From positions 85,453 through 149,452 of the forward strand of contig CAWKAO010000003.1 in the NCBI GenBank assembly GCA_963847665.1: a stretch of 64,000 bases of DNA, written 5' to 3'. The notes under the pieces were generated by a model. It searched no databases. It was not told the origin of the DNA and saw only the letters and a list, made by a program, of their open reading frames with translations. This stretch comes from an uncultured Actinomycetes bacterium. GTDB lineage: Bacteria; Actinomycetota; Humimicrobiia; Humimicrobiales; Humimicrobiaceae. Position 1 is the stretch's first letter. Each line of letters begins with the position of its first letter. Positions 33,324-62,927 of the stretch are shown here, in pieces. A program made the translations under genes and the position numbers.

Positions 33324-34529
33324 TTAAATACTATTTTTGTCATCTTTAAAAAAACTTTTTATCACCTTTATTATCCTGTCCAGGTCTTCTTTATTTAAAT
33401 CATAAAAAAGCGGTAGTCTTAATATGCGATCCGATACATCTTCAGTTACAGGAAAGTCACCTGGTCTGTAACCCAACTTCGCTCCCATAGGGGATAAGTG
33501 AAGCGGCAAAAAATGGAATACAGCAATGATGTTGCTTCTTTTAAAATGATCCATCAGATCATTTCTTGTTTTTAGATCATTTAATAATATATAAAAAATA
33601 TGGCTGTTATGAGTGCAGTTATCGGGTATTACAGGTAGTCTTAAAAGTCCTTTTTTTTGAAATATTTCAAGATTTTCATAATAATGATTCCAGATATAAG
33701 ACCTTTTTTTATTTATATTATAAATTTTTTCAAATTGAGCATATAGAAAAGCAGAAAGCACCTCTGAGGGAAGGAATGATGAACCAATATCCACCCAGCT
33801 ATATTTATCGACTTCACCCCTGAAAAATTTGCTCCTGTTCGTACCCTTCTCTCTTATTATCTCTGCTCTCTCAAAAAAACTTTCATCATTTAACAAAAGT
33901 GCTCCACCCTCACCGCAAATTACATTTTTAGTCTCATGAAAGCTATAACAGCCTAGATTTCCAATACTGCCGAGATAACTATCCTTATATTTTGCTTCTA
34001 TGGCATGGGCAGCATCTTCAATAAGGATAAGGTTATAGTTTCTTGCAATTTGTACTATCTTATCCATTTCACAGGAGACACCTGCATAGTGGATCAGGAC
34101 AATAGCCCTGGTAAACGGGTTTATTGCTTCTTCAATTTTGTCTTCATCGATATTTAAAGTATCTTCCCTGATTTCTGCAAACCTTATGGTCGCATTTCTT
34201 ATGTAAAATGAGTTTGCAGCAGAAACAAAATTAAATGAAGGCATTATGACTTCATCTTCCTTTTTAATGCCAGCAAGTATTGCTGTCATATCCAGGGCAC
34301 TTGAGCATGACGTGGTCAGCAAGGCTTTTTTTACCCCATATCTTGCCTGGATAAAATCATGGCACTTTGTGGTGAAATCCCCGTCCCCGCTTATTTTTCC
34401 GCTTTCAACAGCCTGCTTTATATAGGAAAGCTCATTTCCGACTATTGAAGGTTTATTAAACGGGATCTTTGCGGTTTGCTTTTTTTCTGTTTCCTTCAAT
34501 ATATTTATTTTATTAATGTTCACTGTCAC
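33324..34529 (-). CDS. DegT/DnrJ/EryC1/StrS-family PLP-dependent sugar aminotransferase (ArnB/PglE-like)
   Basis: 'ALLTTSCSSALDMTAILAGIKKEDEVIMPSFNFVSAANSF' and 'YSFHETKNVICGEGGALL', which includes the PLP-lysine region. Confidence 0.85.
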   Translation of the reverse strand: MTVNINKINILKETEKKQTAKIPFNKPSIVGNELSYIKQAVESGKISGDGDFTTKCHDFIQARYGVKKALLTTSCSSALDMTAILAGIKKEDEVIMPSFNFVSAANSFYIRNATIRFAEIREDTLNIDEDKIEEAINPFTRAIVLIHYAGVSCEMDKIVQIARNYNLILIEDAAHAIEAKYKDSYLGSIGNLGCYSFHETKNVICGEGGALLLNDESFFERAEIIREKGTNRSKFFRGEVDKYSWVDIGSSFLPSEVLSAFLYAQFEKIYNINKKRSYIWNHYYENLEIFQKKGLLRLPVIPDNCTHNSHIFYILLNDLKTRNDLMDHFKRSNIIAVFHFLPLHLSPMGAKLGYRPGDFPVTEDVSDRILRLPLFYDLNKEDLDRIIKVIKSFFKDDKNSI

Positions 34530-35454
34530 TATTTATATTGATTGTATCTCTTATGACATACTGAGGCTGTTTATTCTGTGACATAAAAATCCTTCCAACA
34601 TATTCACCTATTAAGCCTACTGAGATCAGCTGTATTCCCGAAAAGAAAAGGATAGCAACAATTGTCGAAGTCCAACCTGTAACAAGAACCGAATCTAACA
34701 TTTTTCTTATCAGTAATATTAATGCGATTATAAAACCTGCTGCAGCACATAATAAACCAAAAAATAATGCGATCCTTAAAGGTTTTACTGAAAAGTTAGT
34801 AAATCCGTTAAACCATAGCCGCAATAATTTAATGAAACTGTAATTCGACTTTCCATGTGCTCTTTTTTTATGCTCTATGTTTACCACTCCTATATTGCTT
34901 GTAATTCTTAAAACAAGACCAGGCAGGTAGGGATATGGTCCCTGGTATTCCAGTATCTCTGTAGCAAGGTATTTTCTAATTACAAAATAACTTGAAGTTT
35001 TTAAATTTCTTGGCTTTTTTAACAGGATATTTGCCATAACAGCATTGATGGTACTGCCAAATTTTCTGAAAATGTTGTGTTTTTTATTAATATAATTTGC
35101 ATATATGATATCATAGCCTTCATCTAACTTTTTTATAAGTTTCCAGATCTCTTCAGGAGGAGTCTGGAGATCATCATCCATAAAAACTGCAACTTCGCCC
35201 TGTATAAACTTTAAACCTGCGATCATTGCATTGTGCTGGCCAAAATTTCTGGAAAGGTTTACAAGTTTGATAGAGTTGTATGATTGTGCTAACTTTAAGC
35301 ACCTGCTGTAACTTGAATCAGTACTCCCGTCGTTCACAAGAATTATTTCATAAGAAACCTTTTCATCTAATTCCCTTAGAAGTCTACCAACGACTTCATC
35401 AATTGTGTTTTCTGAATTATAAACCGGTATGATTATGGATAACATAAAAGACAT
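34513..35454 (-). CDS. Polyprenyl-phosphate sugar synthase, GT2 (GtrB/ArnC/DPM1-like) with two C-terminal TM helices
   Basis: 'MSFMLSIIIPVYNSENTI...ILVNDGSTDSS...VFMDDDLQTPPEEI' plus a C-terminal TM pair. The ORF is open to 35586, but the GT2 consensus starts at the Met at 35454. Overlaps the aminotransferase by 17 nt. Confidence 0.8.
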   Translation of the reverse strand: MSFMLSIIIPVYNSENTIDEVVGRLLRELDEKVSYEIILVNDGSTDSSYSRCLKLAQSYNSIKLVNLSRNFGQHNAMIAGLKFIQGEVAVFMDDDLQTPPEEIWKLIKKLDEGYDIIYANYINKKHNIFRKFGSTINAVMANILLKKPRNLKTSSYFVIRKYLATEILEYQGPYPYLPGLVLRITSNIGVVNIEHKKRAHGKSNYSFIKLLRLWFNGFTNFSVKPLRIALFFGLLCAAAGFIIALILLIRKMLDSVLVTGWTSTIVAILFFSGIQLISVGLIGEYVGRIFMSQNKQPQYVIRDTININSDSEH

Positions 35455-35694
35455 AAAAATATTCTTTCTATTTATGTTTATTAATACTTCGGCAGAAATT
35501 TTAATTACTCTTATTTTAGACATTATATAATAATTATCCATATTTTTTAGTGCTAATAATGATATTAAAGGAAGTATTCTTACCATTTATGTTAAGAATA
35601 CATGCTGATATAATGAGACTGCCAACAGTTACCCAGTAAATATCACTTGCCGAAGCTGGAAAAAAGAACAGTTAAGCAAGATTTATAAATTTAT

Positions 35695-37334
35695 TTGATA
35701 TTTAAAAGTATGTATTTTTTTAGTTCTATCAGAAGTTTTGCAGACAGTAAATATAAGTTGATCATAGTACTTTTTTTCATTATCTTCTTCATAATTGGTA
35801 TATTATCGGTAAGTGATTATGGGATTTCAACAGATGAAGGAGTCCAGCGTGATTTAGGCAATAATGCCTTAAATCTTGTTCTTAAAAATGATAAGGCCAT
35901 ATTTGAATATGAAAATAAGTACCATGGTACTGGTTTTACACTACCCCTAACCATCCTGGTGAAAAGCTTAAATATTAAGAATTTAAGGACTATTTTTTTA
36001 ATCAGGCATTATTTTACTTTTTTATTATTCTACATCTCAGTTATATTCTTCTACTTACTTTGCAGGAAATATTTTTAAGGACTGGAAACTTGGACTGCTT
36101 GGAGGCATTTTTTTAGTCCTTTCACCAAGAATATTTGCAGATTCATTTTACAACCCAAAAGACCTTCCTTTTTTATCAGCTTTTATTGTTTCTATTTTTA
36201 CTCTTAGCAGGTTTCTTGAGACTAAAAATATAAAATTTGCATTCTTACACGGTTTTGCTACAGGATTTGCTACAAGTATCAGGATAATAGGTATCATCAT
36301 TGTCTTTTTTACTTTTCTTTTTTTTATTTTTGATCTGATCCAGATAAAAAAACAGAAAAAAACCATAAATTCATCGCACATCTCCAATGTAATAATAAAT
36401 CTTTTAATATATCTATTTATTATGATAACTATTTTTCTTCTTTTTATGCCTGCACTGATTCCAAACACTATAAATAATTTTATTGGTGCCATAAAGCTTA
36501 TGTCAGACTATCCACACTCAAAAATAGGTCTTTACATGGGAAATATCATTTACGATACCAACCTTCCCTGGCATTATTTGCCTGTAAATATAGCAATAAT
36601 GACACCTATAATTTACACAGTATTATTTCTTTCAGGTTTAATATATTTTTTCAGCCGTTTCAGAAAAAATCTGGATACTTTTTATACCGAAAACAAATAT
36701 ATCATTATTGCTATTTTGTGGTTTTTTATTCCTGATGTTTTCCCAGATATTACTGAGCTCCAACCTGTATAACGGATGGAGGCAGATGTATTTTATCTAT
36801 CCAGCTTTATTGATCATCACACTGATCGGTATTAAATTTTTATTTGATTTCTTTAAAAAAAAGTTGAGTATCAAGAAATATAATGTAGTTGCTACAATTA
36901 TTACCTGTATATTAATCATTAATATAGCTTTTATTGCACAACTAATGATACGGCAGCATCCATACCAATATGTTTATTATAATATACTTGCAGGGAGAAA
37001 CCTGGAAGAGGTAAAGGAAAAGTATCCACTTGATTACTGGGGATTATCTTTCAAAGATGGGCTTGAATACATTCTAAGGACTGATAGCAGGGAAAAGATA
37101 ACTTATTATAACGGAGCCGGGCCAACAAGCTATTCTCAGCTTCTTCTGGATAAACAAGACAGTAAAAGATTAGTTTACGTCAATGATATCGATAAAGCCG
37201 ATTATTATTTAGATAATTATAAAAATATGGATTCTGAATATTACAAACCTTTTAACGGTTTTAGTCTCGAGAAAAAAGTCTTCAGTCTAATAGTAGATAG
37301 CGGAGAAATATTAACTGTTTATAAACTGAAATAG
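35695..37334 (+). pseudogene. Decayed paralog of the ~540-aa GT-C-fold membrane glycosyltransferase (GtrC-type)
   Basis: Three consecutive frames carry the colinear homologue of 43662-45311. A +1 shift sits at ~36072 in a T5 run ('CRKYF|KDWKLG' vs paralog 'CKKIFKDWKFG'). A second shift at ~36745 is a non-homopolymer 2-nt indel ('WFFIP|VFSQILLSSNLYNGW' is restored if 'at' is removed). Confidence 0.7.
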
Positions 37335-37422: not shown

Positions 37423-38487
37423 TTATAAATAACTTGTATAAATCTCCTTATAATATCTTCCAGCCAGTATTTTCCAGTCCAGCTCATCTACTTTTTGAAA
37501 ACCATTTTCTATTATCCTGACCCTCTGGTCACCATCATTTATAATCGATTTACAATTATCAGTAAGGTCCAAGATATCATCAACAGGACTTATCATGGCA
37601 TTCTGGCCGTTTATTGCTATATCATGCACCATGCCTACATCAGTGCTGACTACAGGTATGCACATAGCAAAAGATTCCATCAGAGCCTTTGGTCCCCCCT
37701 CAGTCCTTGAAGTGATAAGATACAGATCAAGGGCTCTATAATAATAAGGTATTTTTAATACATCCCTTGGGTAGAAATGTGCAAACGGGATACCTGCTTC
37801 TTTAAGTTTTTCTTTTACAAACCCTCTTGCAGGCCCGGTTAGCAGAACAAAAACAGGAAAGTCTTTTCTCAACCTTTTAACGACCTCGCAGAATATATCA
37901 GGGCCTTTTATAAGTTTGGGTTTTAAACCTTCGCCCCATCCGTCACCGTCTTTCTGGAAAGAGCCGATACATATAGAACCTTCGGGGATCATAAGCTTTC
38001 TTCTAATCTCTTCCCTGTCTTGTTTAAGGAAACTTTTAAAATATCCGACATCTATTCCTATAGGTATTATGATTATCTTTTCAGATGGAATCCCCCATTT
38101 TATAAGATTGTCCCTGCTCATGGTACATGAAGTAGTAACAACATCTATTTTTTTAGAGATTTCAGATAAATTATCTATATATTCCCTGTCCTTATCAGTA
38201 CCGTGATACCAGGTTAGAATAATATTATTAGTATTTGAGATATAATTATGTATGTCTGGCAAGTATGTGTTTCTTGACCCAAAATGTAATATCTGATTTT
38301 TTATGCCTGATAATCTCCTCTTAGAAGATTTAACAAGCTTTATATCAAGATCAAAAATCCTTTTTATATTTTGCGCTATGGATCGGCCTTCCCAGGCAAT
38401 GACCCATTCTATCCCTTCTATAACATAGTAGATATTTTTTTTATGGCTCAATCTCATCGTATCCTGATAAAATTTATCTCTATTCAA
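37423..38487 (-). CDS. Glycosyltransferase, GT4 family
   Basis: 'RTEGGPKALMESFAMCIPVVSTDVGMVHDI' GT-B donor-binding motif. Confidence 0.8.
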   Translation of the reverse strand: MNRDKFYQDTMRLSHKKNIYYVIEGIEWVIAWEGRSIAQNIKRIFDLDIKLVKSSKRRLSGIKNQILHFGSRNTYLPDIHNYISNTNNIILTWYHGTDKDREYIDNLSEISKKIDVVTTSCTMSRDNLIKWGIPSEKIIIIPIGIDVGYFKSFLKQDREEIRRKLMIPEGSICIGSFQKDGDGWGEGLKPKLIKGPDIFCEVVKRLRKDFPVFVLLTGPARGFVKEKLKEAGIPFAHFYPRDVLKIPYYYRALDLYLITSRTEGGPKALMESFAMCIPVVSTDVGMVHDIAINGQNAMISPVDDILDLTDNCKSIINDGDQRVRIIENGFQKVDELDWKILAGRYYKEIYTSYL

Positions 38488-38580
38488 AAAAAAATAAATT
38501 TAATAGAATTAATAAATAAAATATAATAAAATTTCAGAGCTAAATTATATTATAAAATCATCATTTATATAAATAGAAAA

Positions 38581-39901
38581 TGAATCCGGATTTGTTTTAC
38601 GACCAGCTTATAAAAAAAGAAACAAGATATAGCTGTAGTAGGGCTCGGCTATGTCGGTCTTCCATTGCTTATCGAACTTTCCAGATATTTTGATGTCATC
38701 GGCTTTGATTTAAACAGGCAACGAATATCGGAATTGAGGGAAAATCACGACAAGGACAGGAATGTAAGCATTGAAGAACTTACAGGTATTAAATGTAAAT
38801 ATACTGCCGACGTATAAGATCTTAATCTGGCTAACTTCTTTATAATCGCAGTACCTACTCCCATAGATACTGATAAAAACCCTGACATTACACTCTTAAG
38901 GGAGGCGACAATTACTGCTGGTGAGAATATGCCGTCTGGCTCTATCGTTGTCTATGAATCAACTGTATATCCTGGTGTCACTGAAGAAATCTGCATTCCT
39001 TTACTTGAGGAACATTCAAATCTAAAAAGTGGGCGGGACTTTTTTGTCGGTTACTCGCCCGAAAGGGTCAACCCTGGGGACAGGCAGCACACCCTTAAAA
39101 ATATACAGAAAGTCATATCTGCACAGGATGATGATTCTCTGGAAGTAATATCAAAAGTCTACAATAAAATTGTACCTGCTGGTGTTTTTAAGGCTTCAAG
39201 CATAAAAGTCGCAGAAGCCGCCAAAGTCATTGAAAACACCCAGAGAGATCTTAATATAGCTCTTATCAATGAACTTGCTATTATTTTTTCTAAAATGCGA
39301 TATCGATACAAGTGAGGTCCTTGAGGCAGCATCGACTAAATGGAACTTTATTAAATTTTATCCGGGCCTTGTCGGAGGGCATTGTATTGGAGTGGACCCA
39401 TACTACCTTACTTACAAAGCAAAAAAAATAGGATACCAGCCGGATGTGATACTTGCAGGCAGGAAAATAAATGATGGGATGGGATTATTTATTGGTCAGG
39501 AAATAATTAAAAACCTGGAAACAACCTACAAGGATATTAAAGGATCAAAAGCTATTATCTTCGGAATTACTTTTAAAGAGAACGTATCAGACATCAGAAA
39601 TTCCAGGGTGACTGATATTTATGATCACCTAAAGGTAAATGGTATAGATGCTCTTATATATGATCCTATTGCTAATAAAAATGATGTAAAAAAACATTAT
39701 GGAATAGATCTCATCGAGTTTGAAGAAATTAAAGGGGCAGATGCATTTATTTTTTGTGTATCACATAATGAGTTTAAAAATATTGATCTTAAAAGCTTAA
39801 AAGAAAAACAGAACAAAGAAAATCCTTTTATTTTTGATATAAAATGGATATTTAGAAAAGAAGATATAGAAAAGCTTGGTTACAGATACTGGAGAGTATA
39901 A
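38581..39901 (+). pseudogene. UDP-N-acetylhexosamine 6-dehydrogenase (TviB/WbpO/Cap5O-like), multiply disrupted
   Basis: (1) Frameshift in an A7 run at 38611-38617 between 'MNPDLFYDQLIKK' and 'DIAVVGLGYVGLPLLIEL'. (2) In-frame TAA at 38815-38817 ('[21 protein letters not shown]'). (3) Frameshift at ~39285-39300 between 'NELAIIF..' and '[16 protein letters not shown]...GGHCIGVDPYYL'. Confidence 0.75.
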
Positions 39902-40795
39902 ATGAGGCTTAATGAACTTAAGTTTAACAAGAAAATAAAAATACTTGTTACAGGCTGCGCAGGTTTTATCGGCAGCAATATAATGGAATTCCTACTCAGT
40001 AGGGATATGGCTGTTATCGGCCTAGATGATTTTTCTACAGGAACAAAAGATAATATGGATGAAGTTATCAATTCAATTTCTGAAGTCAATGAAAATCCGG
40101 ATTTCAAGTTTATCCAGGGAGATATAAGAGATTATAATTCATGTATTGCGGCGACAAAAAGTACAGACATTGTACTTCACCATGCTGCACTTGGTTCAGT
40201 TCAACGCTCAATTGAAAATCCCGCTGATTCAAGTTCTGTAAATATCGAAGGCACCCTTAATTTGTTAAGAGCTTCAACAGAAAACAAAGTCAAAAAATTT
40301 ATATATGCATCTTCATCATCTGTTTATGGTGATACAGCAATACTGCCAAAAGTCGAAGACATGCCTCCCAATCCAAAATCCATTTATGCAGTGACTAAAC
40401 TAACAGCAGAGTATTATTGCCGCCTGTATTTTGAAATGTTTGGTTTAATGACAATATCATTGAGATATTTTAATGTATTTGGAAGACGTCAAAACCCTGG
40501 TTCCATTTATTCAGCGGTCATACCAAAATTTTTAAAGAAGATTTCAGAGAACCAGCAACCTGAGGTATATGGAGATGGAAATCAGAGCAGGGATTTTACA
40601 TATATTGATAATGTAATATTTGCCAATTATCTTGCTATGACTTCGGAGAATGACAGATTGTATGGCAATTTTTACAATATCGCATGCGCAAAGAGGATCA
40701 GCCTCAATGAAATCATAGGTTTTATTTCAAAGACAAAGGGCATCCAATGTTACACCGGTCTATCTTCCAGAAAGAAAAGGAGATGTAAGGCATAG
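39902..40795 (+). CDS. UDP-sugar 4-epimerase of the WbpP/TviC type (extended SDR), with two frameshifts in the last ~50 codons
   Basis: 'KILVTGCAGFIGSNIMEFLL' NAD motif. The true C-terminus ('PVYLPERKGDVRHSLAGIEKAKK' then 'ILGYYPLVCFDEGFKRTCGSILNK*') is reached only after frame changes at ~40740 and in an A6 run at ~40825. The stop is at 40897-40899. Confidence 0.7.
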   Translation: MRLNELKFNKKIKILVTGCAGFIGSNIMEFLLSRDMAVIGLDDFSTGTKDNMDEVINSISEVNENPDFKFIQGDIRDYNSCIAATKSTDIVLHHAALGSVQRSIENPADSSSVNIEGTLNLLRASTENKVKKFIYASSSSVYGDTAILPKVEDMPPNPKSIYAVTKLTAEYYCRLYFEMFGLMTISLRYFNVFGRRQNPGSIYSAVIPKFLKKISENQQPEVYGDGNQSRDFTYIDNVIFANYLAMTSENDRLYGNFYNIACAKRISLNEIIGFISKTKGIQCYTGLSSRKKRRCKA

Positions 40796-45311: not shown

Positions 45312-45327
45312 CGATAATATTCCCTTA

Positions 45328-52689: not shown

Positions 52690-52703
52690 AAAGGCAGACC
52701 GCT

Positions 52704-53660: not shown

Positions 53661-53718
53661 TTTTTAACATATGATTGTTATATATAAAAATAAATATTTT
53701 TATTAAAAAACTTTTTAT

Positions 53719-55341: not shown

Positions 55342-55364
55342 AACAAGAGGGATAAACGTTTAAT

Positions 55365-57488
55365 ATGAAAAATAAGAAATTGAAAGTATTGCTCATAATC
55401 CTGACATCAATAATAATTTTTGCAGGTTTTTTACTTCTTGTCCTCCCTTTTTTAAAATTATCTATCAAAGGTACTGAGTTTAGTGGCATTATGTTGATTT
55501 TATCAGGCAGCATAATAATGCTGGGGCTTGAAAGATTGGAAAACTTAACAGGTAGATTTTTTAAAAAGCTTTTTTCTGCAATTAAAGATGAGGGAAGACC
55601 CCATCTTATTTTTTTGCTGATCATATTTATATCCGGAATCATTTTCAGGATTATTTTTATTACAAAACAGATCAATTACAGTGAAGCATTTATTTACCTT
55701 GATTATCTGAGAGAGAGGACTTTTAATGACCTTTTCTTCTACTCATCCGCAGATAATTTTATTCTTAATAATCTCTTTATGAAGCCATTGTCTTTAATAT
55801 CCAGTGATCTATGGGTCTTAAGGTTGCCTTCATTAATAGCAGGTATGATTATAATCCCCGCATCTTATGTCACAACAAGGATCTTATATAATAAGCATGC
55901 AGCACTGATCGCTTCAGCAATCATATCCTCCTCTTCATACTTCATTTATTATTCTACCGATATGAGAGGCGTCTCTCTTCTTCTACTTGTTTTTCTATTT
56001 ACCGTAATGACTGCTACGTTTTTAAGAAAAAACGATGAGATGATCGCATGGGTCTTTATATCATTGCTATCAGCTTTAGGATTCTATCTAACCGCTTTTT
56101 ATTTTTTACCTTTTATGACAGTTATGATTTGGCTTATTCTTTCTGCAATTTTTAAGGACACTGCATATAGTCTGTGGAATGCAATAAAACGTGTTCTTTT
56201 AGTTGCAGCTGTGTCTTTTATGTTTACTTTTCTTTTTTATATTCCAGTTATCATAACTTCAGGAATAAGAGATACGGTAAACTTTAATTTTTCAAAAGCT
56301 GAAAATTTAAAATTAGCGCTTAAATCCTTAATAGACCTGATCAGGCCAGAATGGATTGGCTTAAATGCAATTATTAACTTGATTTTTATAATTCTGTTAT
56401 TTATTGCAGTTATCTTTTCAGTAACTATAAGCAGAAAAAATAAAAAGCATAAGATTTCCTTATTTTATGCTGTCGCAATAGTAATTACTATATTTATGCT
56501 TTCTTTAGTAAAATTTTCTTCTGCAGTTTCAATGGCTTTTATTCCACTATCCTTGATCATTATTGCATCATATGGAATAAGCTACATCCTGGGAACTGAC
56601 AGAATATTAAATGGAACAGCAATAAACAGAAAGTTATCCCGGTCAGCAGCTATTTTCGCAACAGTGTCTTTGATTGCAATATTTTCTGTGGGGCTTATTT
56701 TTAATTCTATTTCACTTATAAATGTGACTGACACTTTAAAGGATTCTGACAGGATTGTATCAGATTACGGCAGTAAATTTACAACTGGAAATAAAGTGAT
56801 CCTTCAAAAACCAGCTGATTATCTGATGATGTACTCACTTAAAACCCAGGGAATTAACTATACAGGATATGAAGATGTCTTATACCCTGATAATAATATT
56901 ATTATTTTAGTAAGCAAATCAGCCGGGCAAAATGTTGATGAAATATTAAATAACTTCTACTCGACACACGACCTTCTATCTCTAGGTTTTACAGATCCTG
57001 AAATCTTAAAAGATTATCCTACCGCAACAATTTACGAATCCAGAAATAGGGTTGTGGCAGATAATATTATTTTTGATCTGACCGATCCTTCAAATGAAAA
57101 TAATATTGAAATGGAAAAATTCATATTCTCCTCTGAACCTGAGATTGACGAGTTTCTTTTAGATGATTTTAATCCGGAATCTCTAAAATATGTAAAAATA
57201 TCTGTCAGCCTTCAAAAAGATACAGAATACCTAATAAGATTTAAGATCAAAGCAGACCAACTGACCAATAAGATATTTATTGATTTTTTCGGAGACAATT
57301 ATGACAATCCTGATCAGGAATTTAATATTGACCCTGAAACAATCAAACAGGGCTCCTTTGTAGAGGTCAGAAAGGTCATTAATTCAGGTGAATTTAAAGA
57401 TGGGATAGATACATTTTTCAGGATTTTCACATATGCTAACGGGCACCTACAGATACAGGATCTCAAGATCTATAAGGTTGATGATTAA
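55365..57488 (+). CDS. GT-C-like polytopic membrane protein with the same conserved C-terminal domain (type A) as 48853-50859
   Basis: 707 aa. ~13 TM segments, then a soluble region ending 'EYLIRFKIKADQLTNKIFIDFFGDNYDNPDQEFNI...VINSGEFKDGIDTFFRIFT...IQDLKIYKV'. Confidence 0.5.
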   Translation: MKNKKLKVLLIILTSIIIFAGFLLLVLPFLKLSIKGTEFSGIMLILSGSIIMLGLERLENLTGRFFKKLFSAIKDEGRPHLIFLLIIFISGIIFRIIFITKQINYSEAFIYLDYLRERTFNDLFFYSSADNFILNNLFMKPLSLISSDLWVLRLPSLIAGMIIIPASYVTTRILYNKHAALIASAIISSSSYFIYYSTDMRGVSLLLLVFLFTVMTATFLRKNDEMIAWVFISLLSALGFYLTAFYFLPFMTVMIWLILSAIFKDTAYSLWNAIKRVLLVAAVSFMFTFLFYIPVIITSGIRDTVNFNFSKAENLKLALKSLIDLIRPEWIGLNAIINLIFIILLFIAVIFSVTISRKNKKHKISLFYAVAIVITIFMLSLVKFSSAVSMAFIPLSLIIIASYGISYILGTDRILNGTAINRKLSRSAAIFATVSLIAIFSVGLIFNSISLINVTDTLKDSDRIVSDYGSKFTTGNKVILQKPADYLMMYSLKTQGINYTGYEDVLYPDNNIIILVSKSAGQNVDEILNNFYSTHDLLSLGFTDPEILKDYPTATIYESRNRVVADNIIFDLTDPSNENNIEMEKFIFSSEPEIDEFLLDDFNPESLKYVKISVSLQKDTEYLIRFKIKADQLTNKIFIDFFGDNYDNPDQEFNIDPETIKQGSFVEVRKVINSGEFKDGIDTFFRIFTYANGHLQIQDLKIYKVDD

Positions 57489-57567
57489 TTTAACAGGATA
57501 TTTTTACATATCATTTAGATGGAAAAAAATATATAATATCGACAGTTAAAAACAGCAAAAAGGTTTT

Positions 57568-59235
57568 ATGGAATTAAAAAGCGGATATATAGATTTTATT
57601 CAAAGATATGTTCCTAAAGTACTGACTCATTTAGATAGAGACCCTGATTCAATAAATTTCGGGTGTTGCGACAGAAATTACTGGCATCTCAGATCAAGTG
57701 ACTTTGCTTCTGCTATTCTTCAGCAAACCAGTCTCACGCTTTCACTGTTATACAGCACTGATTTTGAAGGAAACAGGTATTACAAAAATCGTAATATATA
57801 TGATTGGGCGATCGGTTCGATCGATTATTGGAAAAGAATTCAGCACCGTGATGGTTCTTTCAATGAGTATTTCCCAAATGAACATGGGTTTCCGCCCACT
57901 GCTTTTTCCTTATTTGCTATTGCCTATTCTTATATGCTTTTAAAACTTAATGACAATTCAGTAATAGATTCAATGCTTAAATCTGTAAAATGGCTTTCCC
58001 AAAGGGAAGAGTTTAAAGCATACAATCATGAAATAGCCTCAATAAGTGCCTTATACTGTACTTATCTGATAACAGACCAGAAGTGGATTCTAGAAGTTGT
58101 GAATAAAAAATTAGATGTTTTTCTAAGAGGCCAGTCTGGGGAAGGGTGGTTTCCAGAGCAAGGGGGCGCCGACCTCGGTTACCTGACAGTCACTTTTGAT
58201 ATGTTTTCTGAGTATTACTGGCTCAGCAGGGACAGTAAAGTTATTGAACCATTAAATAAAGTTACAGATTTTATTAAATATTTCTGTCACCCTGATAAAA
58301 CATATGGAGGTGAATACGGTTCAAGGAATACCATATATTTTTTACCCAGCAGTCTTGAAGTCTTATCCAGTATCGGAAATTTCAATGCTAAACAGATAAA
58401 AGATTTTTTATTTAAGAATACGGGTGGTTATGATTATTTCCAGAACTCTATCGACGACAGATACCTGCTTCATTATGTGATGCACTCTTTTTTAAGGGCT
58501 CTTCAAAAAGAAAATGAATTAAAAAAGGGAAACGGGACCAGTGATAAGAATAATTACCAGGAAAATCTACAATACAATTTCCATAAAGAGTTGCCCTGCT
58601 TTAAAAACCATGAAAAATATTTTTCAGATAGCGGCTTGCTAACCTTGAAAAATGACAATTATTTTGCGGTGGTCAGTGCAAAGAAAGGTGGGGTAATCAA
58701 AGTATTTGATTCTGGTAACGAGATATTTGCCGATTTTGGATTCAGGGCGATCCATAAAAATAATACGATTTCTGCAACTAACTGGCTTGATGATTCATAT
58801 AAGATAAAAATTGAAAAAAATACTATAACAGTCAAAGGTTATTTCAATAAAATAAAACTCCAGCATTCGTCCACTCTAAGGCATTTTCTACTACGGATTT
58901 TTTCCCCTTTTTTAAATAGTATTTTAAGGGAGTTTTTATATAAGAAACTAATATTCATAGACAAACATTCAAATATCAAATTCGAAAGAACTATAAACCT
59001 AAGACATAGTAATATTCAAATAACAGATATTATCACTGATAATAATGAAATGCTACCCCTTCATTCAGCACCAAATATTTCATTAAGATTTGTTGCTTCA
59101 GATAAATTTTTCAGCAAGACTGACCTTCTGAGTGAAAAAAGGATCGAACTGGATGGAGTAAAAGCCATAAAAATTATTCAGGATTTTAACGTTTTCTCGA
59201 AAAATACAAGTACCCTGGTTGAGAAGTTATCATGA
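57568..59235 (+). CDS. Hypothetical soluble protein (555 aa), possibly a polysaccharide-modifying enzyme
   Basis: No TM segment or signal peptide. W/Y/H-rich N-terminal half ('NYWHLRSSDFASAIL', 'DYWKRIQHRDGSFNEYFPNEHGF') weakly resembles alpha/alpha-toroid lyase/epimerase folds. No firm family assignment. Confidence 0.35.
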   Translation: MELKSGYIDFIQRYVPKVLTHLDRDPDSINFGCCDRNYWHLRSSDFASAILQQTSLTLSLLYSTDFEGNRYYKNRNIYDWAIGSIDYWKRIQHRDGSFNEYFPNEHGFPPTAFSLFAIAYSYMLLKLNDNSVIDSMLKSVKWLSQREEFKAYNHEIASISALYCTYLITDQKWILEVVNKKLDVFLRGQSGEGWFPEQGGADLGYLTVTFDMFSEYYWLSRDSKVIEPLNKVTDFIKYFCHPDKTYGGEYGSRNTIYFLPSSLEVLSSIGNFNAKQIKDFLFKNTGGYDYFQNSIDDRYLLHYVMHSFLRALQKENELKKGNGTSDKNNYQENLQYNFHKELPCFKNHEKYFSDSGLLTLKNDNYFAVVSAKKGGVIKVFDSGNEIFADFGFRAIHKNNTISATNWLDDSYKIKIEKNTITVKGYFNKIKLQHSSTLRHFLLRIFSPFLNSILREFLYKKLIFIDKHSNIKFERTINLRHSNIQITDIITDNNEMLPLHSAPNISLRFVASDKFFSKTDLLSEKRIELDGVKAIKIIQDFNVFSKNTSTLVEKLS

Positions 59236-60182
59236 CCGATTATTCCATAATAATACCATGTTATAATGAGCAGGATAGCATAGAAGAGCTATATGATAGG
59301 CTATTAACTATCTTTAAAAGTTTAGGTGCCTCTTCTGAGATAATTTTTATCGATGACGGCTCAATAGATGATACATGGGAGAAAATAATTGGTTTAAGCA
59401 AAAAGGACCCTGGAGTCAAGGGCGTCTCCTTCAGGCGGAATTTCGGAAAATCCATGGCATTTTCATGTGGCTTTGACCTTGCAATTGGTGAAGTGATATT
59501 TACTATTGATGGTGATCTGCAGGACACCCCGGAAGAGATCCCAAAATTCATTGAAAAATTGAATGAGGGGTATGACCTTGTTTCAGGCTGGAAAAGAAAA
59601 AGAAAAGATACTTTTGCCAAGGTAGCTGCTTCAAGGATATTTAATTTTTTTACATCTCGGTTGACTGGTGTTAGGATACATGACTTTAATTGCGGTTTTA
59701 AAGCCTATAGAAAAAAGGTCATAAAAAATCTTGATATTTATGGTGATCTTTTCCGTTTTATTCCTGCAATTGTGAAATGGAACGGGTTTAAGGTAGGGGA
59801 AATAGTAGTAGAGCATAATGTAAGGAAATATAGCAAATCAAAATATGGTCCGAGGCGATTATTGAGGGGGTTTTTTGACTTATTTACAATTCTATTTCTA
59901 TCAAGATACTTAAGAAAACCACTGCATTTTTTTGGAGTTGTCGGGGGGGCAATATTATTGATAGGCTTTGGGATAAACCTGTATCTCGCGATTATATGGT
60001 TTCAGGGGCAGCTGATAGGAGGCAGGCCTTTACTTATTTTAGGGACCTTGCTAATGATCATAGGAATTCAATTTACAATGACAGGTTTGCTGGCAGAAAT
60101 GATAGCACATTTCCAGACTAAAATGGACAGGTCAATATATCCTATCGCAGAAAAAACTGACAATATTGACAGGTTTAAATAA
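59232..60182 (+). CDS. Polyprenyl-phosphate sugar synthase, GT2 (GtrB/ArnC-like) with C-terminal TM pair
   Basis: 'YSIIIPCYNEQDSI...IIFIDDGSIDDT...FTIDGDLQDTPEEI' plus two C-terminal TM helices. 4-nt overlap with the upstream gene. Confidence 0.8.
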   Translation: MTDYSIIIPCYNEQDSIEELYDRLLTIFKSLGASSEIIFIDDGSIDDTWEKIIGLSKKDPGVKGVSFRRNFGKSMAFSCGFDLAIGEVIFTIDGDLQDTPEEIPKFIEKLNEGYDLVSGWKRKRKDTFAKVAASRIFNFFTSRLTGVRIHDFNCGFKAYRKKVIKNLDIYGDLFRFIPAIVKWNGFKVGEIVVEHNVRKYSKSKYGPRRLLRGFFDLFTILFLSRYLRKPLHFFGVVGGAILLIGFGINLYLAIIWFQGQLIGGRPLLILGTLLMIIGIQFTMTGLLAEMIAHFQTKMDRSIYPIAEKTDNIDRFK

Positions 60183-60233
60183 AAATTTATATTCAGATTT
60201 AAATAATATTAGATAAAATCCTCAACTTAAAAT

Positions 60234-61274
60234 ATGAGTAGCATAGCTTCCAAAATTTCGGGGAAAAAAACCCTGATAATTAGATTAACTGCCAGCCTGA
60301 TTATAACTGGCAGTTTTATTTATTTTCTCGTTAAATACCTTGATATAAATGATTTCAAACAGCTTTTTAGCAACATTAATATTTATTTTTTCCTGATGGC
60401 CCTTCTACTTCATTCTTTCGATTATGCTATCAGGAGTTTCAGGACAATACTTATACTGGACCTTAAAATGAAAAGCTTCAGTAATATGTTCTTTATGTAT
60501 TCAAGATATTACCTGCTTAACAAGATCCTGCCTTTCAGGCTTGGGGAGCTTTCCTTTATTTATTTTCTAAAGAATGAATACAATACTTCATATGGCAAAG
60601 CAGTGGGGATACTTATTTATTTTCGTATCATAGACCTTCTGACTGTGCCTATTTTCTTTATAGCGGCATACTTGTTTAACTACTCAACCTTCCAGAGTGC
60701 AAACAATTCTGCAATCCTCGTAATATCTTTTATTTCTTTAATACTGATTTTCTTAATCTTTATCTTTTTTAAGAGAATTTTAGATAAGTTGTATTATTTC
60801 TTTTTTTGGCTTTCAAAAAAGTTCAATTTTTTCCAAAAAAAATTATATTTAAACCTACTTAAAAAACTTGAAAATTTTACCATTGAGACCAAAGCATTTA
60901 TTAACTGGAAGACAAATTTAAACACTGCATTATTACTTCTCTTTGACAGGTTTTTGGTTTACCTTATTATGTTCCTGCTATTTATTGGTTTTGGTATAAA
61001 GATCAATTTTGGGATTTTTATCATAGCCTCAAGCCTATCTATCCTCACCAATGTTCTTCCGATCAATGGAGTCGGCAATTTCGGGACATTTGAGGCCGGT
61101 TGGACATTTGGATTTATACTGGCCGGGTATAACAGGAACCTATCACTTGTTTCAGGCTTTGGCATTAATATAATTTATTTTATTTTTACTGTTGTCGTAC
61201 TTATAATAGGTTTCTTTATTTCAGACTACAGAGCCAAATTTTTCAGGACCGTCAGATCAAAAATAAAAAGATAA
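60234..61274 (+). CDS. Flippase-like membrane protein (lysyl-PG synthase TM-region / UPF0104 family)
   Basis: 346 aa, ~8 TM segments. 'ILPFRLGELSFIYFLK' matches the conserved P-x-R-x-G-E loop of this family. Directly downstream of a GtrB-like gene. Confidence 0.6.
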   Translation: MSSIASKISGKKTLIIRLTASLIITGSFIYFLVKYLDINDFKQLFSNINIYFFLMALLLHSFDYAIRSFRTILILDLKMKSFSNMFFMYSRYYLLNKILPFRLGELSFIYFLKNEYNTSYGKAVGILIYFRIIDLLTVPIFFIAAYLFNYSTFQSANNSAILVISFISLILIFLIFIFFKRILDKLYYFFFWLSKKFNFFQKKLYLNLLKKLENFTIETKAFINWKTNLNTALLLLFDRFLVYLIMFLLFIGFGIKINFGIFIIASSLSILTNVLPINGVGNFGTFEAGWTFGFILAGYNRNLSLVSGFGINIIYFIFTVVVLIIGFFISDYRAKFFRTVRSKIKR

Positions 61275-61310
61275 CGTGGGCCTTTTCATAATGAAAAAAA
61301 TAGCAACTTT

Positions 61311-62927
61311 TTACTTCAAGTAATAAGGATAATACCTTAATCTGTAGACAGTCGAGATCTCCCCGCCATTAACAAGCACACTGTATACTTTATTTTTGGG
61401 ATTCAGGTATTCGTCTTCTTCAAACCTGTGGTTAATGATCAAATATTCAGTCTCTTCGAGAGTATTGACAAAAACAAGGCGCTCTTTATCCTGTTCAGAA
61501 AACATATATTCAGCAGCTTCATTACTGCCTTCTCTGGTCGTATAAGTTATCCTTTTCCTGTTATCTGTTTTTAAGATAAACTCCAGGGCGTCTTTATATG
61601 CCATGCCCCAGTAATCAAGTATAAACCTTCCTTTTACCACTTTCATATCCCTGCCAGCAAGAATATTGTAATAGATGTATTGATAGGGATGCTGCCTGAC
61701 CATAAGCTGGGTTATATATACCTGGTTCATGATAATAGCTGCAGCAAGAATCATAGCAGCAAGATTATAATATTTTATCTTTAACTTAGTAAATAATAGT
61801 CTATACATAAACTTTACTCCATTAAGGGCAAGTATCAGCAATGCCGGATATATAAAATACATCTGCCGCCAGCCGTTATATAATGTTGAACCTAATATTA
61901 TTACAGCAAGGACCGGAATAAAAAACCACATAATAGAGATAATGATAAATTTATTCTCCAAATAATAATCTATAAGGCCCTTTCTGAAGTGGCTGAAAAA
62001 ATATAAAAGTCCTATAAAGAATAGAATAGAGTAAGGTATTGGTGTCATTAGCAAAATATTAACAGGTAAATAGTGCCATGGTAAATCAAAACTCGATAAA
62101 TATTGCCCCATATATAAAAACCTTGTATCAAGGGGGAAATCAGACATTGTCTTTAATGCAGCGATAAAATTATTTAAGGGATCAGGAAGCAGCGCAGGCA
62201 TCAAGGCAAGAAAAACTATTATTGTCACAAACAGATAAATAAGAAGAATCATTATTTGTCTGTTAGTTTTTATATAAATGCTGTTATTAGTTTGTTTTTT
62301 TAATATTAATAGGTCAAGGATAAAAAATAATATTGTAAAAACAAAAATAAGAATACTGATTATTCTTAGGCCAGTTGCAATTCCAGTAACAATCCCATGT
62401 AAAAATGCATAACTTGCAGACCGCTTTTGCAGAAACCTGTAAAGTGTAAAAATTGCAATAATAAATAATGATAAGAATGGCAAGTCTTTAGGATTATAAA
62501 ATGAGTCAGCAAATATCCTAGGAGAAAGTACCAAAAAAACACTTCCAAGCAGGCCCAGTTTCCATGATTTAAAAATATTCCTGCAGAGAAAATAGAAAAA
62601 TATCACTGAGGTATAAAACAGTATAAAAGTAGCGTAATGCCTTAAAATAAATACTGTACTAGTATTATTAATATTAAAGATTCTTTCTATTATAGTTAAA
62701 ATAAGGGTGAAGGTGGTGCCATGGTATTTGTTGATATGTCCATAAATAGACCTATCGTTTCTTAATAATAATTTTATTGCTGAAATACCAAGATTTTTTT
62801 GAGAATTTTCATCCCAGGTGATCCCATAGTCTTTGACAGATAAAATACCAATTATCAAAAATATACTAAAAAATATTATTATAATTATCTTATGATTTCT
62901 ATCCGTAAAGTCTTTGATTTTATCCAT
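61311..62927 (-). CDS. GT-C-fold membrane glycosyltransferase (GtrC-type), paralog 3 of 4
   Basis: 538 aa. 'DYGITWDENSQKNLG', 'FYNPKDLPFLSLF' and 'LPWHYLPVNILLMTP'. Confidence 0.65.
   Translation of the reverse strand: MDKIKDFTDRNHKIIIIIFFSIFLIIGILSVKDYGITWDENSQKNLGISAIKLLLRNDRSIYGHINKYHGTTFTLILTIIERIFNINNTSTVFILRHYATFILFYTSVIFFYFLCRNIFKSWKLGLLGSVFLVLSPRIFADSFYNPKDLPFLSLFIIAIFTLYRFLQKRSASYAFLHGIVTGIATGLRIISILIFVFTILFFILDLLILKKQTNNSIYIKTNRQIMILLIYLFVTIIVFLALMPALLPDPLNNFIAALKTMSDFPLDTRFLYMGQYLSSFDLPWHYLPVNILLMTPIPYSILFFIGLLYFFSHFRKGLIDYYLENKFIIISIMWFFIPVLAVIILGSTLYNGWRQMYFIYPALLILALNGVKFMYRLLFTKLKIKYYNLAAMILAAAIIMNQVYITQLMVRQHPYQYIYYNILAGRDMKVVKGRFILDYWGMAYKDALEFILKTDNRKRITYTTREGSNEAAEYMFSEQDKERLVFVNTLEETEYLIINHRFEEDEYLNPKNKVYSVLVNGGEISTVYRLRYYPYYLK

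Follow-up and report, generated by a model that had tools for sequence, protein, structure and literature searches.

The GtrA/GtrB/GtrC systems for O-antigen glucosylation of Shigella and Salmonella phages and the Gram-positive CsbB/GtlA, GtcA and YfhO/GtlB proteins combine a flippase and an extracytoplasmic GT-C with a GT2 polyprenyl-phosphate sugar synthase that has a TM pair at its C-terminus; the same classes, with a candidate flippase, are encoded in the locus described here. In the ArnC/ArnT system, Und-P-L-Ara4N is used on lipid A, with ArnT belonging to GT83. RgtA-C are ArnT-like paralogs of the GT-C type, each with its own acceptor position, and are fed by one GT2-made donor. RgtE and several Rgt proteins of Rhizobium transfer bactoprenyl-P-GalA to the LPS core and lipid A from one GT2-made lipid donor (PMC7663294). 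The mycobacterial and corynebacterial set of EmbA-C, AftA-D, PimE and Pmt (with DPA and polyprenyl-P-mannose/Ppm1) consists of many GT-Cs using few lipid-monophosphate donors, and some of its GT-Cs have C-terminal CBMs. In lactococci, a polymerase/ligase role on Und-P-linked oligosaccharides was proposed for WpsH/WpsJ (PMC10821137). For the neighbouring archaeal genes arCOG00899 (UPF0104 flippase), arCOG00897 (AglD-like GT2) and arCOG00563 (PMT/STT3-like), a joint role in glycosylation and flipping was predicted (Makarova et al. 2015, PMC5898192). In the three-component GT136 pentofuranose system of Citrobacter youngae (ORF12-15), a CBM-bearing GT-C binds the glycan backbone and side chains are added in the periplasm after polymerisation (Kelly et al. 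2024, PMC11127046). CBMs that bind glycan acceptors are documented on GT-Cs for GT136, EmbC and AftD (PMC11127046).

We analyzed a 64-kb window, the whole stretch of DNA under study, from an uncultured bacterium whose genome has 33% GC. A preliminary description had proposed four recently diverged modules in positions 33324-62927, each with a GT2 next to a GT-C of about 540 aa. An ORF is present at every coordinate it gave. Its remark that one or two such modules per genome are usual is an understatement in view of the several systems in lactococci (PMC10821137), Rgt and mycobacterial Emb/Aft. The gene stretch is a crowded, uncharacterised case of a well-known type of surface-glycan machinery, and not four recent copies of a module. 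An island for cell-envelope glycans probably fills the whole window, with this stretch as its distal half; the rest of the window codes for Wzx-like, Wzy_C, Bac_transf, Wzt/ABC-2 and many GT1/GT2 proteins. The genes discussed below are as follows.

22563-24722, + strand: YfhO-family GT-C (Pfam YfhO 66.6 bits), outside the span described before
33324-34529, - strand: WecE-type dTDP-4-amino-4,6-dideoxyhexose aminotransferase, DegT family (Pfam DegT_DnrJ_EryC1 282 bits)
34513-35454, - strand: GT2 no. 1, putative polyprenyl-phosphate glycosyltransferase of GtrB/ArnC/PgfS type with C-terminal TM pair
35695-37334, + strand: ~540-aa GT-C family pseudogene, frameshifted by +1 twice (near 36062-36076 and at 36735)
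37423-38487, - strand: GT4-type (GT-B fold) cytoplasmic glycosyltransferase (Pfam Glycos_transf_1 64.9 bits)
38580-39901, + strand: UDP-glucose/GDP-mannose dehydrogenase (Ugd) pseudogene (Pfam fragments)
39902-40795, + strand: TviC-like NAD-dependent sugar-nucleotide (uronate) 4-epimerase (Pfam Epimerase 206 bits)
41049-41744, + strand: six-TM membrane protein, no Pfam match
42087-43622, + strand: PD40 (TolB-like) beta-propeller with duplicated N-terminal domains (Pfam PD40 103 bits)
43662-45311, + strand: GT-C paralog A of the ~540-aa ArnT/PMT-like family (PMT_2 27.3 bits, cut-off 26.1)
45328-46341, - strand: PD40 beta-propeller with N-terminal signal peptide (Pfam PD40 241 bits, 7 repeats)
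46549-47286, + strand: GT2 no. 2, 245-aa DPM1/GtrB-like catalytic domain
47381-48823, + strand: D, polytopic membrane protein (PMT_2 23.7 bits, E 6e-5, under the cut-off of 26.1)
48853-50859, - strand: E, predicted GT-C-fold protein with C-terminal beta-sandwich resembling carbohydrate-binding modules
51094-52689, + strand: F, ArnT/GT87-like GT-C candidate (PMT_2 E 0.011)
52704-53660, + strand: GT2 no. 3, AglJ/DPMS-like, with C-terminal TM segments
53719-55341, + strand: GT-C paralog B of the ~540-aa family, the copy chosen for the structure model
55365-57488, + strand: G, putative 707-aa GT-C (PMT_2 28.6 bits, cut-off 26.1)
57568-59235, + strand: H, soluble 555-aa protein, its stop overlapping the start of GT2 no. 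4
59232-60182, + strand: GT2 no. 4, ArnC/GtrB-like, with C-terminal TM pair
60234-61274, + strand: UPF0104 / MprF-flippase-like membrane protein, candidate flippase for lipid-linked sugar
61311-62927, - strand: GT-C paralog C (PMT_2 29.8 bits), convergent with the flippase-like gene

The four GT2 proteins of this stretch face at least eight GT-C-type proteins or candidates, including the upstream YfhO protein. The earlier inventory was incomplete: it left out D, E, F and G, all from the same stretch, and the YfhO protein, which also belong to the GT-C type or are candidates for it.

All four GT2 proteins hit Pfam Glycos_transf_2 (83-111 bits) and possess a DxD motif, and three of the four align over their full length to PDB structures, including the C-terminal TM pair. 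By sequence, the solved structures closest to them are those of ArnC, GtrB (sll0501) and P. furiosus DPMS. The signature of polyprenyl-phosphate-sugar synthases was looked for and is present, and homology supports the assignment of the four to this type. GT2 no. 1 matches GtrB sll0501 (E 2e-50) and ArnC (7e-49) best, both at full length, and PgfS (199 bits) and ArnC (187 bits) in NCBIfam, under the equivalog cut-offs; it has a DDDLQ motif and TM segments at 265-330. Its longest ORF reaches 35586, and homology begins near the ATG at 35454. GT2 no. 2 has a DADLS motif and matches GtrB (4e-17), ArnC (2e-16, residues 5-234) and DPMS (1e-12); a search of its 245 aa for a hydrophobic segment found none, and it is taken to lack a TM segment. 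GT2 no. 3, with a DADNQ motif, has P. furiosus DPMS as top PDB match (1e-13), a full-length alignment to ArnC (3e-8) and an NCBIfam match to AglJ (112 bits, under its cut-off). GT2 no. 4, with a DGDLQ motif, matches ArnC (3e-49) and GtrB (5e-37), both at full length, and has orthologues of 75-76% identity in loci L004 and L005 of relatives.

Paralogs A, B and C are colinear, as described before, and 54-57% identical. A is 57% identical to both B and C, and C is 55-57% identical to A and B; both retain all the family invariants, A also the DE motif. The database entry for paralog A (P0003) has 543 aa, and the start is therefore implied at 43680. The region 35695-37334 is a fourth copy, split over three frames by its two +1 shifts. 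Three tblastn pieces in frames 0, 1 and 2 display 57-68% identity to A. The junctions were read directly; once repaired, the reading frame contains no stop, and all 19 residues that are invariant in the family are retained. Pfam PMT_2 is passed, if marginally (26.6-29.8 bits, cut-off 26.1), and the structure model supports a GT-C fold. ArnT and ALG12 score as well as PMT or better, and the extra domain sits at the C-terminal end, like that of ArnT. A profile of the family found no sequence match among solved structures, ArnT included. Some members of the family are fused to PA14, a carbohydrate-binding domain, and a distant member in L011 sits in a canonical GT2 - GT-C - GtrA trio; others, for example that of the Omnitrophota locus L009, lack a neighbouring GT2.

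D, which begins 94 nt downstream of GT2 no. 2 and has a homologue (63%) directly upstream of F in L006, is probably a GT-C. F is a candidate GT-C, with homologues that include some with PMT_2, one named 'ArnT-like' and distant ones with GT87 (PF09594). According to its AlphaFold model (pLDDT 89), E is a GT-C fold with a CBM-like domain, in a family without Pfam match (no Pfam domain in any of 49 homologues). Foldseek matches of the model are EmbC, AftD, STT3 and ArnT, with CBM16 and CBM4 for the C-terminus; the similarity to EmbC and AftD, the best matches, is at fold level only (TM-score 0.3). H42, W45 and D47 are invariant and E48 is near-invariant among E homologues, and these Asp/Glu residues follow TM1. 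The C-terminal ~100 aa of G are homologous to the C-terminus of E (37% identity to E residues 566-664). The YfhO protein has a 40% homologue in L005. H has no match in Pfam, NCBIfam or PDB sequences, and its homologue (63-65%) adjoins the gene of GT2 no. 4 type in L004. The protein reported as flippase-like was confirmed by Pfam LPG_synthase_TM (PF03706, 101.8 bits, cut-off 33.4), with TIGR00374 at 42.1 bits against a cut-off of 43.2, and an orthologue (72%) adjoins a GT2 in L004. The cargo in MprF and gpg/hex systems is a glycerolipid, and UPF0104 proteins are not known to flip polyprenyl-phosphate sugars.

Sugar-nucleotide genes are found in the same stretch. The aminotransferase matches NCBIfam PRK11706 (dTDP-4-amino-4,6-dideoxygalactose transaminase) with 568.8 bits, against a cut-off of 375, and its gene overlaps the 3' end of GT2 no. 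1 by 17 nt. Ugd is disrupted by an in-frame TAA at 38815 and by frameshifts, and is intact in L006 (439 aa), where it adjoins the homologue of the GT4-type gene. TviC is the top NCBIfam match of the epimerase (260 bits, under cut-off). The six-TM protein is 48% identical to the product of the L005 gene directly after the one of GT2 no. 4 type. The first PD40 protein has homologues in L005 (59%) and, fragmented, in L004 (44-58%), in the same cluster as GT-C genes. The second has internal 132-nt repeats in its gene; its signal peptide ends in Cys (...LLNSAC), and it is therefore a probable lipoprotein.

F, GT2 no. 3, B, G, H, GT2 no. 4 and the flippase-like gene lie on the same strand (51094-61274) with gaps of -4 to 79 nt, an operon-like arrangement. 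Linkage is conserved in L004, L005, L006-8 and a JGI contig. The conserved units are two gene sets, D-F-GT2-E and GT-C540-G-H-GT2-flippase, and not GT2/GT-C pairs. A gene of GT2 no. 3 type comes after the F homologue in L004 and L006-8, and G homologues stand directly after the 540-aa GT-C gene in L004, L005 and the JGI contig. The adjacency of each GT2 to a 540-aa GT-C holds only loosely. The opposite-strand PD40 gene stands between GT2 no. 2 and A, leaving D as the direct neighbour, and GT2 no. 3 is placed between F and B and travels with F in relatives. The locus is a mosaic of the two conserved gene sets and extra copies of one GT-C family.

We consider the locus likely to be a transmembrane glycosylation island of multiple components, where many GT-Cs, acting on an extracytoplasmic glycan target, would be fed by several lipid-phosphate-sugar donors. 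By homology, the four different GT2s of the GtrB/ArnC/DPMS class would each charge polyprenyl phosphate with a sugar taken from a nucleotide sugar, on the cytoplasmic side of the membrane. The UPF0104 protein, and possibly other membrane proteins, may move these lipid-linked sugars to the outer face. A GT-C-fold battery would then transfer the sugars to extracytoplasmic acceptors; it consists of the three ~540-aa ArnT/PMT-like paralogs that are intact, E and G, and, as candidates, D and F, together with the upstream YfhO protein. With a ratio of GT-C to GT2 of about 2:1, it is probable that a single donor serves several GT-Cs with different acceptor sites, the arrangement known from RgtE and RgtA-D/F and from DPA and Emb/Aft. 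A polysaccharide acceptor is suggested by the CBM-like beta-sandwich of E and by its homologue in G; most simply, it would be the glycan from the Wzx/Wzy- and ABC-type genes located in the window's first half.

It is highly improbable that the locus consists of four recently duplicated GT2/GT-C modules forming an actively diversifying, possibly switchable decoration system, as first proposed. This proposal can draw on the four copies of one GT-C family within 28 kb, against one or two in relatives, on the inactivation of one of them and on a G7 tract within GT2 no. 4. However, the GT2s supposed to be close paralogs share just 24-35% pairwise identity and are therefore not duplicates, and their best family matches differ (PgfS/ArnC/GtrB type, AglJ/DPMS type, and the 245-aa form without TM segment). 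The GT-C copies, at 54-57% protein identity and 65-78% DNA identity in the best segments, are not recently diverged either. In a neighbor-joining tree, A and the pseudogene do not group with each other but with P0002 and P0006, respectively (67% each); at least two of the four copies thus have a closer relative on another metagenome contig. Nor do the differences lie mostly in loops: three-way identity amounts to 45% within TM helices and 41% elsewhere (Fisher p=0.30), and the most variable segments include TM11 and TM5. No gene-conversion tracts of high identity were found among the copies, and the only inverted repeats found are those between the paralogs themselves. Every copy retains all catalytic and invariant residues. 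There is no sign of active diversification; judged by their sequences, the four copies are old paralogs, of which one is decaying together with the neighbouring Ugd gene.

Other functions were considered for the GT-Cs. They could build or ligate a polymer outside the membrane, by Emb/Aft-like stepwise polymerisation or as a WpsH/WpsJ-like polymerase/ligase. In favour of this, four donors stand against at least eight GT-C-type proteins, which belong to five sequence families; EmbC and AftD, each with CBM-like domains, top the fold matches of E; and GT-Cs handle GT2-primed Und-P oligosaccharides in the lactococcal model (PMC10821137). We regard this as unlikely, since conventional Wzx/Wzy_C and ABC-transporter genes for polymerisation and export are already in the window, the EmbC/AftD likeness stays at fold level and no DPA-type donor pathway was found. 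A role of the 540-aa GT-Cs as PMT-type protein O-glycosyltransferases for secreted or lipid-anchored proteins is rather unlikely. Such enzymes would use polyprenyl-phosphate hexose from the DPM1-like GT2s, like actinobacterial Ppm1/Pmt, and the PD40 propellers, conserved neighbours and candidate substrates, are compatible with a protein acceptor. The 540-aa proteins lack, however, the MIR domain and the large TM7-TM8 loop domain, and resemble ArnT and ALG12 at least as well as PMT, with the extra domain placed as in ArnT; the CBM-like domains of E and G and the PA14 fusions suggest glycan acceptors, and the PD40 sequences have no Ser/Thr-rich linker. Quite unlikely, too, is an ArnT/Rgt-like role in a diderm host, where the paralogs of the 540-aa family would each place a charged sugar (amino sugar or uronic acid) at another position of lipid A or the LPS core, in the manner of RgtA-D/F with RgtE. 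The window has no lipid A, Kdo or outer-membrane genes, and the relative L006 has genes for GerMN and Amidase_3, a feature more typical of monoderms. Moreover, the aminotransferase is WecE-type and not ArnB, ArnA, ArnD and ArnE/F are missing, Ugd is a pseudogene and no ArnT-family profile matches.

The proposed multi-donor island can be set beside the described systems. GtrB (sll0501) is the best solved relative of GT2 no. 1 and no. 2, but no GtrA (PF04138) is present here, UPF0104 being the flippase candidate, and there are many GT-Cs per GT2. YfhO is matched only by the upstream protein and not by the 540-aa family. Compared with ArnC/ArnT, the 540-aa profile has no ArnT sequence match, ArnA/B/D/E/F genes are absent beside the WecE-type aminotransferase, and a lipid A acceptor is unsupported. 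The likeness to Rgt in proposed roles and gene set extends to Ugd and a uronate 4-epimerase-like gene at the locus, although Ugd is broken here. The Emb/Aft set shares the pattern of many GT-Cs with few lipid-monophosphate donors, and GT2 no. 2, DPM1-like and without TM segment, presumably resembles the Ppm1 catalytic domain; the likeness is at fold level only, and the window, from a genome of 33% GC whose Actinomycetota label derives from two short binned contigs, has no DPA pathway. The archaeal trio consists of the same three protein classes as the run GT2 no. 4 - UPF0104 - C, a likeness by protein class to a system that is archaeal, predicted only and presumed to glycosylate proteins (S-layer). 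The GT136 system differs in its donor, made by a PRPP-dependent synthase and not by a GT2, and in its MATE-type flippase, but its GT-C with an appended, backbone-binding CBM and its addition of side chains after polymerisation resemble what is proposed for the locus.

Cell-envelope glycan genes fill the window end to end, at a GC content of 33%. They encode a Wzt-type ABC transporter, two Wzy_C proteins, a Bac_transf initiating transferase, a Wzx-like flippase, many GT1 and GT2 enzymes, one YfhO and sugar-nucleotide enzymes. No tRNA genes were found in the window, and no marker genes among the window ORFs examined. All ORFs named in the preliminary description are present at the coordinates it gave. 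The genes of main concern are as follows.

43662-45311, + strand: A, intact ~540-aa GT-C protein
53719-55341, + strand: B, intact ~540-aa GT-C protein
61311-62927, - strand: C, intact ~540-aa GT-C protein
35695-37334, + strand: pseudogene of the same ~540-aa family
34513-35454, - strand: GT2_34513, GT2 protein
46549-47286, + strand: GT2_46549, GT2 protein
52704-53660, + strand: GT2_52704, GT2 protein
59232-60182, + strand: GT2_59232, GT2 protein
47381-48823, + strand: D, polytopic protein
48853-50859, - strand: E, polytopic protein
51094-52689, + strand: F, polytopic protein
55365-57488, + strand: G, polytopic protein
57568-59235, + strand: H, soluble protein
60234-61274, + strand: UPF0104 protein, flippase-like
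22563-24722, + strand: YfhO protein
42087-43622, + strand: PD40 protein
45328-46341, - strand: PD40 protein

Proteins A, B and C are colinear, with mutual identity of 54-57%. The 540-aa proteins match PMT_2 marginally, with scores of 26.6-29.8 bits against a cut-off of 26.1. A (27.3 bits) and C (29.8 bits) match PMT_2 only, and B alone matches PMT (PF02366; 29.7 bits, cut-off 22.7). A profile of 53 family members found no match at E<=1 among all PDB sequences, ArnT included. An AlphaFold2 model of B was built from the 53-member family alignment (pLDDT 90.8, pTM 0.92), and its best PDB matches in Foldseek were ArnT (E 1e-7), followed by STT3, PglB, ALG9, AftA, PMT and Emb. The catalytic acid of GT-C enzymes is located in the first extracytoplasmic loop after TM1. 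Right after TM1 in the 53 family members, D40 is invariant and E41 is at least 90% conserved; neither is lost from A, B, C or the pseudogene, and the two are putative catalytic residues. Because the B model matches ArnT and related enzymes and D40/E41 follow TM1, the predicted fold of the family is GT-C (GT-C_A class), as the preliminary description had supposed. No MIR domain was matched by Pfam in the 540-aa proteins, and the sole sizeable extramembrane domain of the B model is C-terminal (residues 420-540), with no TM7-TM8 MIR loop as in GT39. The NCBIfam ArnT model has no match in these proteins either; judged by sequence and model, the family falls outside GT83 (ArnT) at the sequence level, and its likeness is at the fold level only. 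YfhO (PF09586) has no match in the 540-aa family or in D, E, F and G.

The family is large. A phmmer search of 1.84 billion cluster representatives gave 6,506 matches at E<=1e-3 and 1,580 at E<=1e-30, the latter number counting 50%-identity clusters. Nearly all are unnamed metagenomic proteins, with a few labelled Omnitrophota or 'GT39 family', and the named homologues are from Omnitrophota at ~37% identity. In a scan of a genome collection, the only matches were a 1.7-kb contig from one 'Actinomycetota' MAG and two MAGs of Chloroflexota. Six extended members of 735-894 aa (P0057, P0073, P0075, P0082, P0094 and P0107) carry PA14 (PF07691), a hint of carbohydrate recognition in this family.

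The GT-C inventory of the preliminary description was incomplete, as four more polytopic proteins, D, E, F and G, lie within the same 30 kb. G scores above the PMT_2 cut-off, D falls just below it (E 6e-5), and F matches weakly (E 0.011). Some homologues of F have PMT_2, one is annotated ArnT-like, distant ones have GT87, and one of the named homologues is an 'Actinomycetota' fragment. E belongs to a family of ~49 detectable members, none of which has a Pfam domain. After TM1, H42, W45 and D47 are invariant in this family and E48 is near-invariant; D47/E48 would be the catalytic residues. The model of E (pLDDT 89) matches EmbC, AftD, STT3 and ArnT in fold, and when the profiles of the E and 540-aa families were compared with each other, their DE motifs aligned, though only weakly (E 8e-4, probability 24%). 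The modelled C-terminal beta-sandwich of E resembles CBM16 and CBM4, with target TM-scores of ~0.6-0.66. A beta-sandwich of this kind, ~100-130 aa long and C-terminal, is common to three GT-C scaffolds, namely E (~540-668), G (607-705) and a YfhO-like 947-aa protein at the related locus L005 (1934-4777). Between the C-terminal domain of E and the final ~100 residues of G, identity is 37%. Pfam has no match for this shared domain, and the G sequence has none in the PDB. YfhO was matched in the window at 22563-24722 only (66.6 bits). With it, GT-C-type proteins or candidates, all of them intact, number at least eight in the window, against four GT2s. A further protein of 670 aa at 31217-33229 is rich in TM segments and ends in a DUF4214 domain. 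It may be yet another GT-C-type enzyme, since PMT_2 is fused to DUF4214 in P0064, a homologue of the 540-aa family.

All four GT2 proteins match Pfam Glycos_transf_2. Their closest relatives by sequence among all PDB sequences are ArnC, GtrB (sll0501) and P. furiosus DPMS, which agrees with their earlier placement in the polyprenyl-phosphate-sugar synthase class, and the alignments of GT2_34513 and GT2_59232 are full-length (E 1e-49 to 1e-50). Each has a DxD motif (DDDLQ, DADLS, DADNQ, DGDLQ). A C-terminal hydrophobic or TM helix pair is present in GT2_34513, GT2_52704 and GT2_59232 and absent from GT2_46549 (245 aa), as it is from short DPM1-type enzymes. Their predicted product is a polyprenyl-phosphate sugar. 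Pairwise identity among the four is 24-35%, and none reaches an NCBIfam equivalog cut-off, so that no GT2 is orthologous to a named enzyme; they are four different members of the class and not recent paralogs. A G7 tract at 59943-59949 within GT2_59232 (V-G-G-A codons), in a genome of 33% GC, is a possible slipped-strand site.

The gene of a WecE-type dTDP-4-amino-4,6-dideoxyhexose aminotransferase (33324-34529; WecE equivalog 568.8 bits, cut-off 375) overlaps that of GtrB/ArnC-like GT2_34513 by 17 nt, the two genes together spanning 33324-35454. This overlap suggests that GT2_34513 may attach an amino-dideoxyhexose to the lipid carrier. An Arn-like aminoarabinose pathway was considered for the left-hand genes (DegT, GT2, GT-C pseudogene, Ugd and epimerase) and rejected, as the aminotransferase passes WecE and not ArnB, and the epimerase is TviC-like and not ArnA.

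Gene orders on contigs of relatives show two conserved gene sets in place of the GT2/GT-C pairs described before. The orders are given below, with GT2 types named after their counterparts in the window and GT-C540 denoting the ~540-aa family.

L004: UPF0104 - GT2_59232 type - H - PD40 - F - GT2_52704 type - GT-C540 - G
L005: YfhO - UPF0104 - F - GT-C540 - G - PD40 - GT2_59232 type - homologue of 41049-41744 - amine oxidase - DegT
JGI contig: UPF0104 - GT-C533 - GT-C530 - G709 - GT2
L006-8: D - F - GT2_52704 type, with E nearby and GT-C540 absent

From these orders, GT2_52704 goes with F, and GT2_59232 goes with UPF0104, H and the GT-C540/G pair. Within the window, F, GT2_52704, B, G, H, GT2_59232 and the UPF0104 gene form a same-strand run (51094-61274) with gaps of -4 to 79 nt. 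Of other family members, a more distant one (41% identical) lies in a classic GT2 - GT-C - GtrA trio (L011), another lies beside a GT2 and a YfhO (L012), and an Omnitrophota member is an orphan amid housekeeping genes (L009). A FAD amine-oxidase-like protein at 62954-63997, which continues past the window end and has 463 aa in a Logan contig, adjoins the GT-C locus both here and in L005 (15792-17180). It is 73% conserved, and its NCBIfam matches are 'hypothetical protein' models only (PRK07208).

Relatives have one or two GT-C540 copies, and the window has three intact copies and the pseudogene. These copies had been thought recently diverged. Their DNA identity is 65-78% in the best segments, and in a neighbour-joining tree A groups with P0002 (67%), as the pseudogene does with P0006 (67%), each of these homologues coming from another contig. 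No gene-conversion tracts were found among the paralogs, and recent duplication or gene conversion is ruled out by the identity and the tree. Nor do the differences lie mainly in loops: the TM helices have a three-way identity of 45% and the remaining positions one of 41% (Fisher p=0.30), the most variable segments include TM11 (16%) and TM5 (32%), and the TM3/4 region is the most conserved (71%). Of the four GtrB-like/GT-C modules first described, the genes and their biochemical class stand, and their reading as paralogous, recently diverged and diversifying modules is largely excluded.

The fourth GT-C540 copy (35695-37334) is spread over three frames by two +1 insertions. The repaired translation has no stop and keeps all family-invariant residues. 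Long-read assembly error was considered as the cause and is possible for the first shift, which lies in or beside a T5/A3 run (36062-36076). The second shift, however, comes from one additional A at 36735, where there is no homopolymer. Moreover, the adjoining Ugd pseudogene (38580-39901) has two frameshifts, one in an A7 run near its start and the other close to a T6 run at ~39250-39300, as well as a substitution that creates an in-frame TAA at 38815, and its L006 homologue is intact with 439 aa. For these reasons genuine decay of this corner appears more likely than assembly error. Two other ORFs are candidates for broken genes or indel errors: a half-length UPF0104/LPG_synthase_TM ORF just downstream of YfhO (25239-25694; profile 1-134 of 302) and, near the YfhO gene, an ABC ATPase ORF lacking its N-terminal part (26892-27479).

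GtrA (PF04138) was matched by none of the 51 ORFs of at least 100 aa scanned across the window, and a UPF0104 protein is found there instead. The protein at 60234-61274 matches PF03706 (UPF0104, MprF-flippase-like) with 101.8 bits (cut-off 33.4), and the match covers positions 3-301 of the 302 in the profile. Experimental support for flipping by UPF0104 proteins concerns glycerolipids only. H (555 aa) ends in a stop codon overlapping the GT2_59232 start (ATGA), and its 63-65% identical homologue lies beside the same GT2 type in L004. No Pfam, NCBIfam or PDB-sequence match was found for H, which may be a new donor-sugar modifying enzyme. A six-TM protein at 41049-41744, assigned to no known family, has a 48% identical homologue directly after the GT2_59232-type gene of L005 (14976-15653); it may assist a GT2 as an accessory subunit or serve as an alternative flippase.

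Taken together, homology and gene context point to a mechanism in which the GT2s would make polyprenyl-phosphate sugars in the cytoplasm, the UPF0104 protein or another membrane protein would flip these lipid-linked sugars, and the GT-Cs would move the sugar to an acceptor outside the membrane. A trio of UPF0104, AglD-like GT2 and PMT/STT3-like proteins has been predicted as an archaeal glycosylation unit (PMC5898192). Since GT-Cs outnumber GT2s ~2:1, several GT-Cs that differ in acceptor site probably draw on one donor. A shared donor serving several GT-Cs, as proposed here, is found in the Rhizobium Rgt system (PMC7663294), and the mycobacterial Emb/Aft enzymes share donors likewise. As to the acceptor, the GT-Cs might carry out PMT-like O-glycosylation of the conserved PD40 propeller proteins, and PD40 (TolB-like) beta-propeller genes do adjoin GT-C540/G in three genomes (the window, L004 at ~4390-5919 and L005 at 11787-13442). 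The PD40 protein at 45328-46341 has 337 aa, a lipoprotein-like signal (…LLNSAC) and internal 132-nt repeats. The PD40 proteins may be acceptors, scaffolds or unrelated neighbours. We favour a glycan acceptor, because of the CBM-like domains on E and G and the PA14 fusions in some 540-aa family members. GT136, EmbC and AftD are documented cases of GT-Cs with CBMs that bind glycan (PMC11127046).

A rival reading is ArnT/Rgt-like modification of lipid A or LPS core. There are weak hints that the host is a monoderm, possibly of a deep actinobacterial lineage: homologues at 56-64% identity lie on two short contigs in MAGs labelled Actinomycetota, and a relative's locus (L006) has GerMN and Amidase_3 genes. 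Such a lineage, if true, would suit a GT-C-rich envelope. The remaining alternative is extracytoplasmic polymer assembly or ligation, either Emb/Aft-like, in keeping with the fold matches of E, or lactococcal WpsH/WpsJ-like (PMC10821137).

Rather than revealing a new mechanism, the locus adds a dense and uncharacterised example to a known class of systems. It is of use as a compact catalogue, and its main value is that it draws attention to two GT-C families, large and poorly annotated, together with the genes linked to them. One is a very large environmental family that is tied genetically to GtrB/ArnC-type GT2s and UPF0104 flippase-like proteins and is detected marginally by Pfam PMT_2; the other, that of E, is missed entirely by current domain libraries. 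To our knowledge, the majority of GT-C families are uncharacterised. By transferring lipid-phosphate sugars outside the membrane, GT-C enzymes shape surface antigens, phage receptors and antimicrobial-peptide resistance, and the three intact paralogs in one genome are a natural set for the study of acceptor specificity.

The most far-reaching reading, which we think improbable as a whole, sees the locus as a bacterial equivalent, beyond the cultured Actinobacteria, of arabinan assembly in mycobacteria. Here a large mixed GT-C battery, some of it with CBM-like domains, would build a branched extracytoplasmic glycan stepwise from four different lipid-monophosphate sugars, the 540-aa and E families would be new at the CAZy level, and UPF0104 would be the long-sought polyprenyl-phosphate-sugar flippase.
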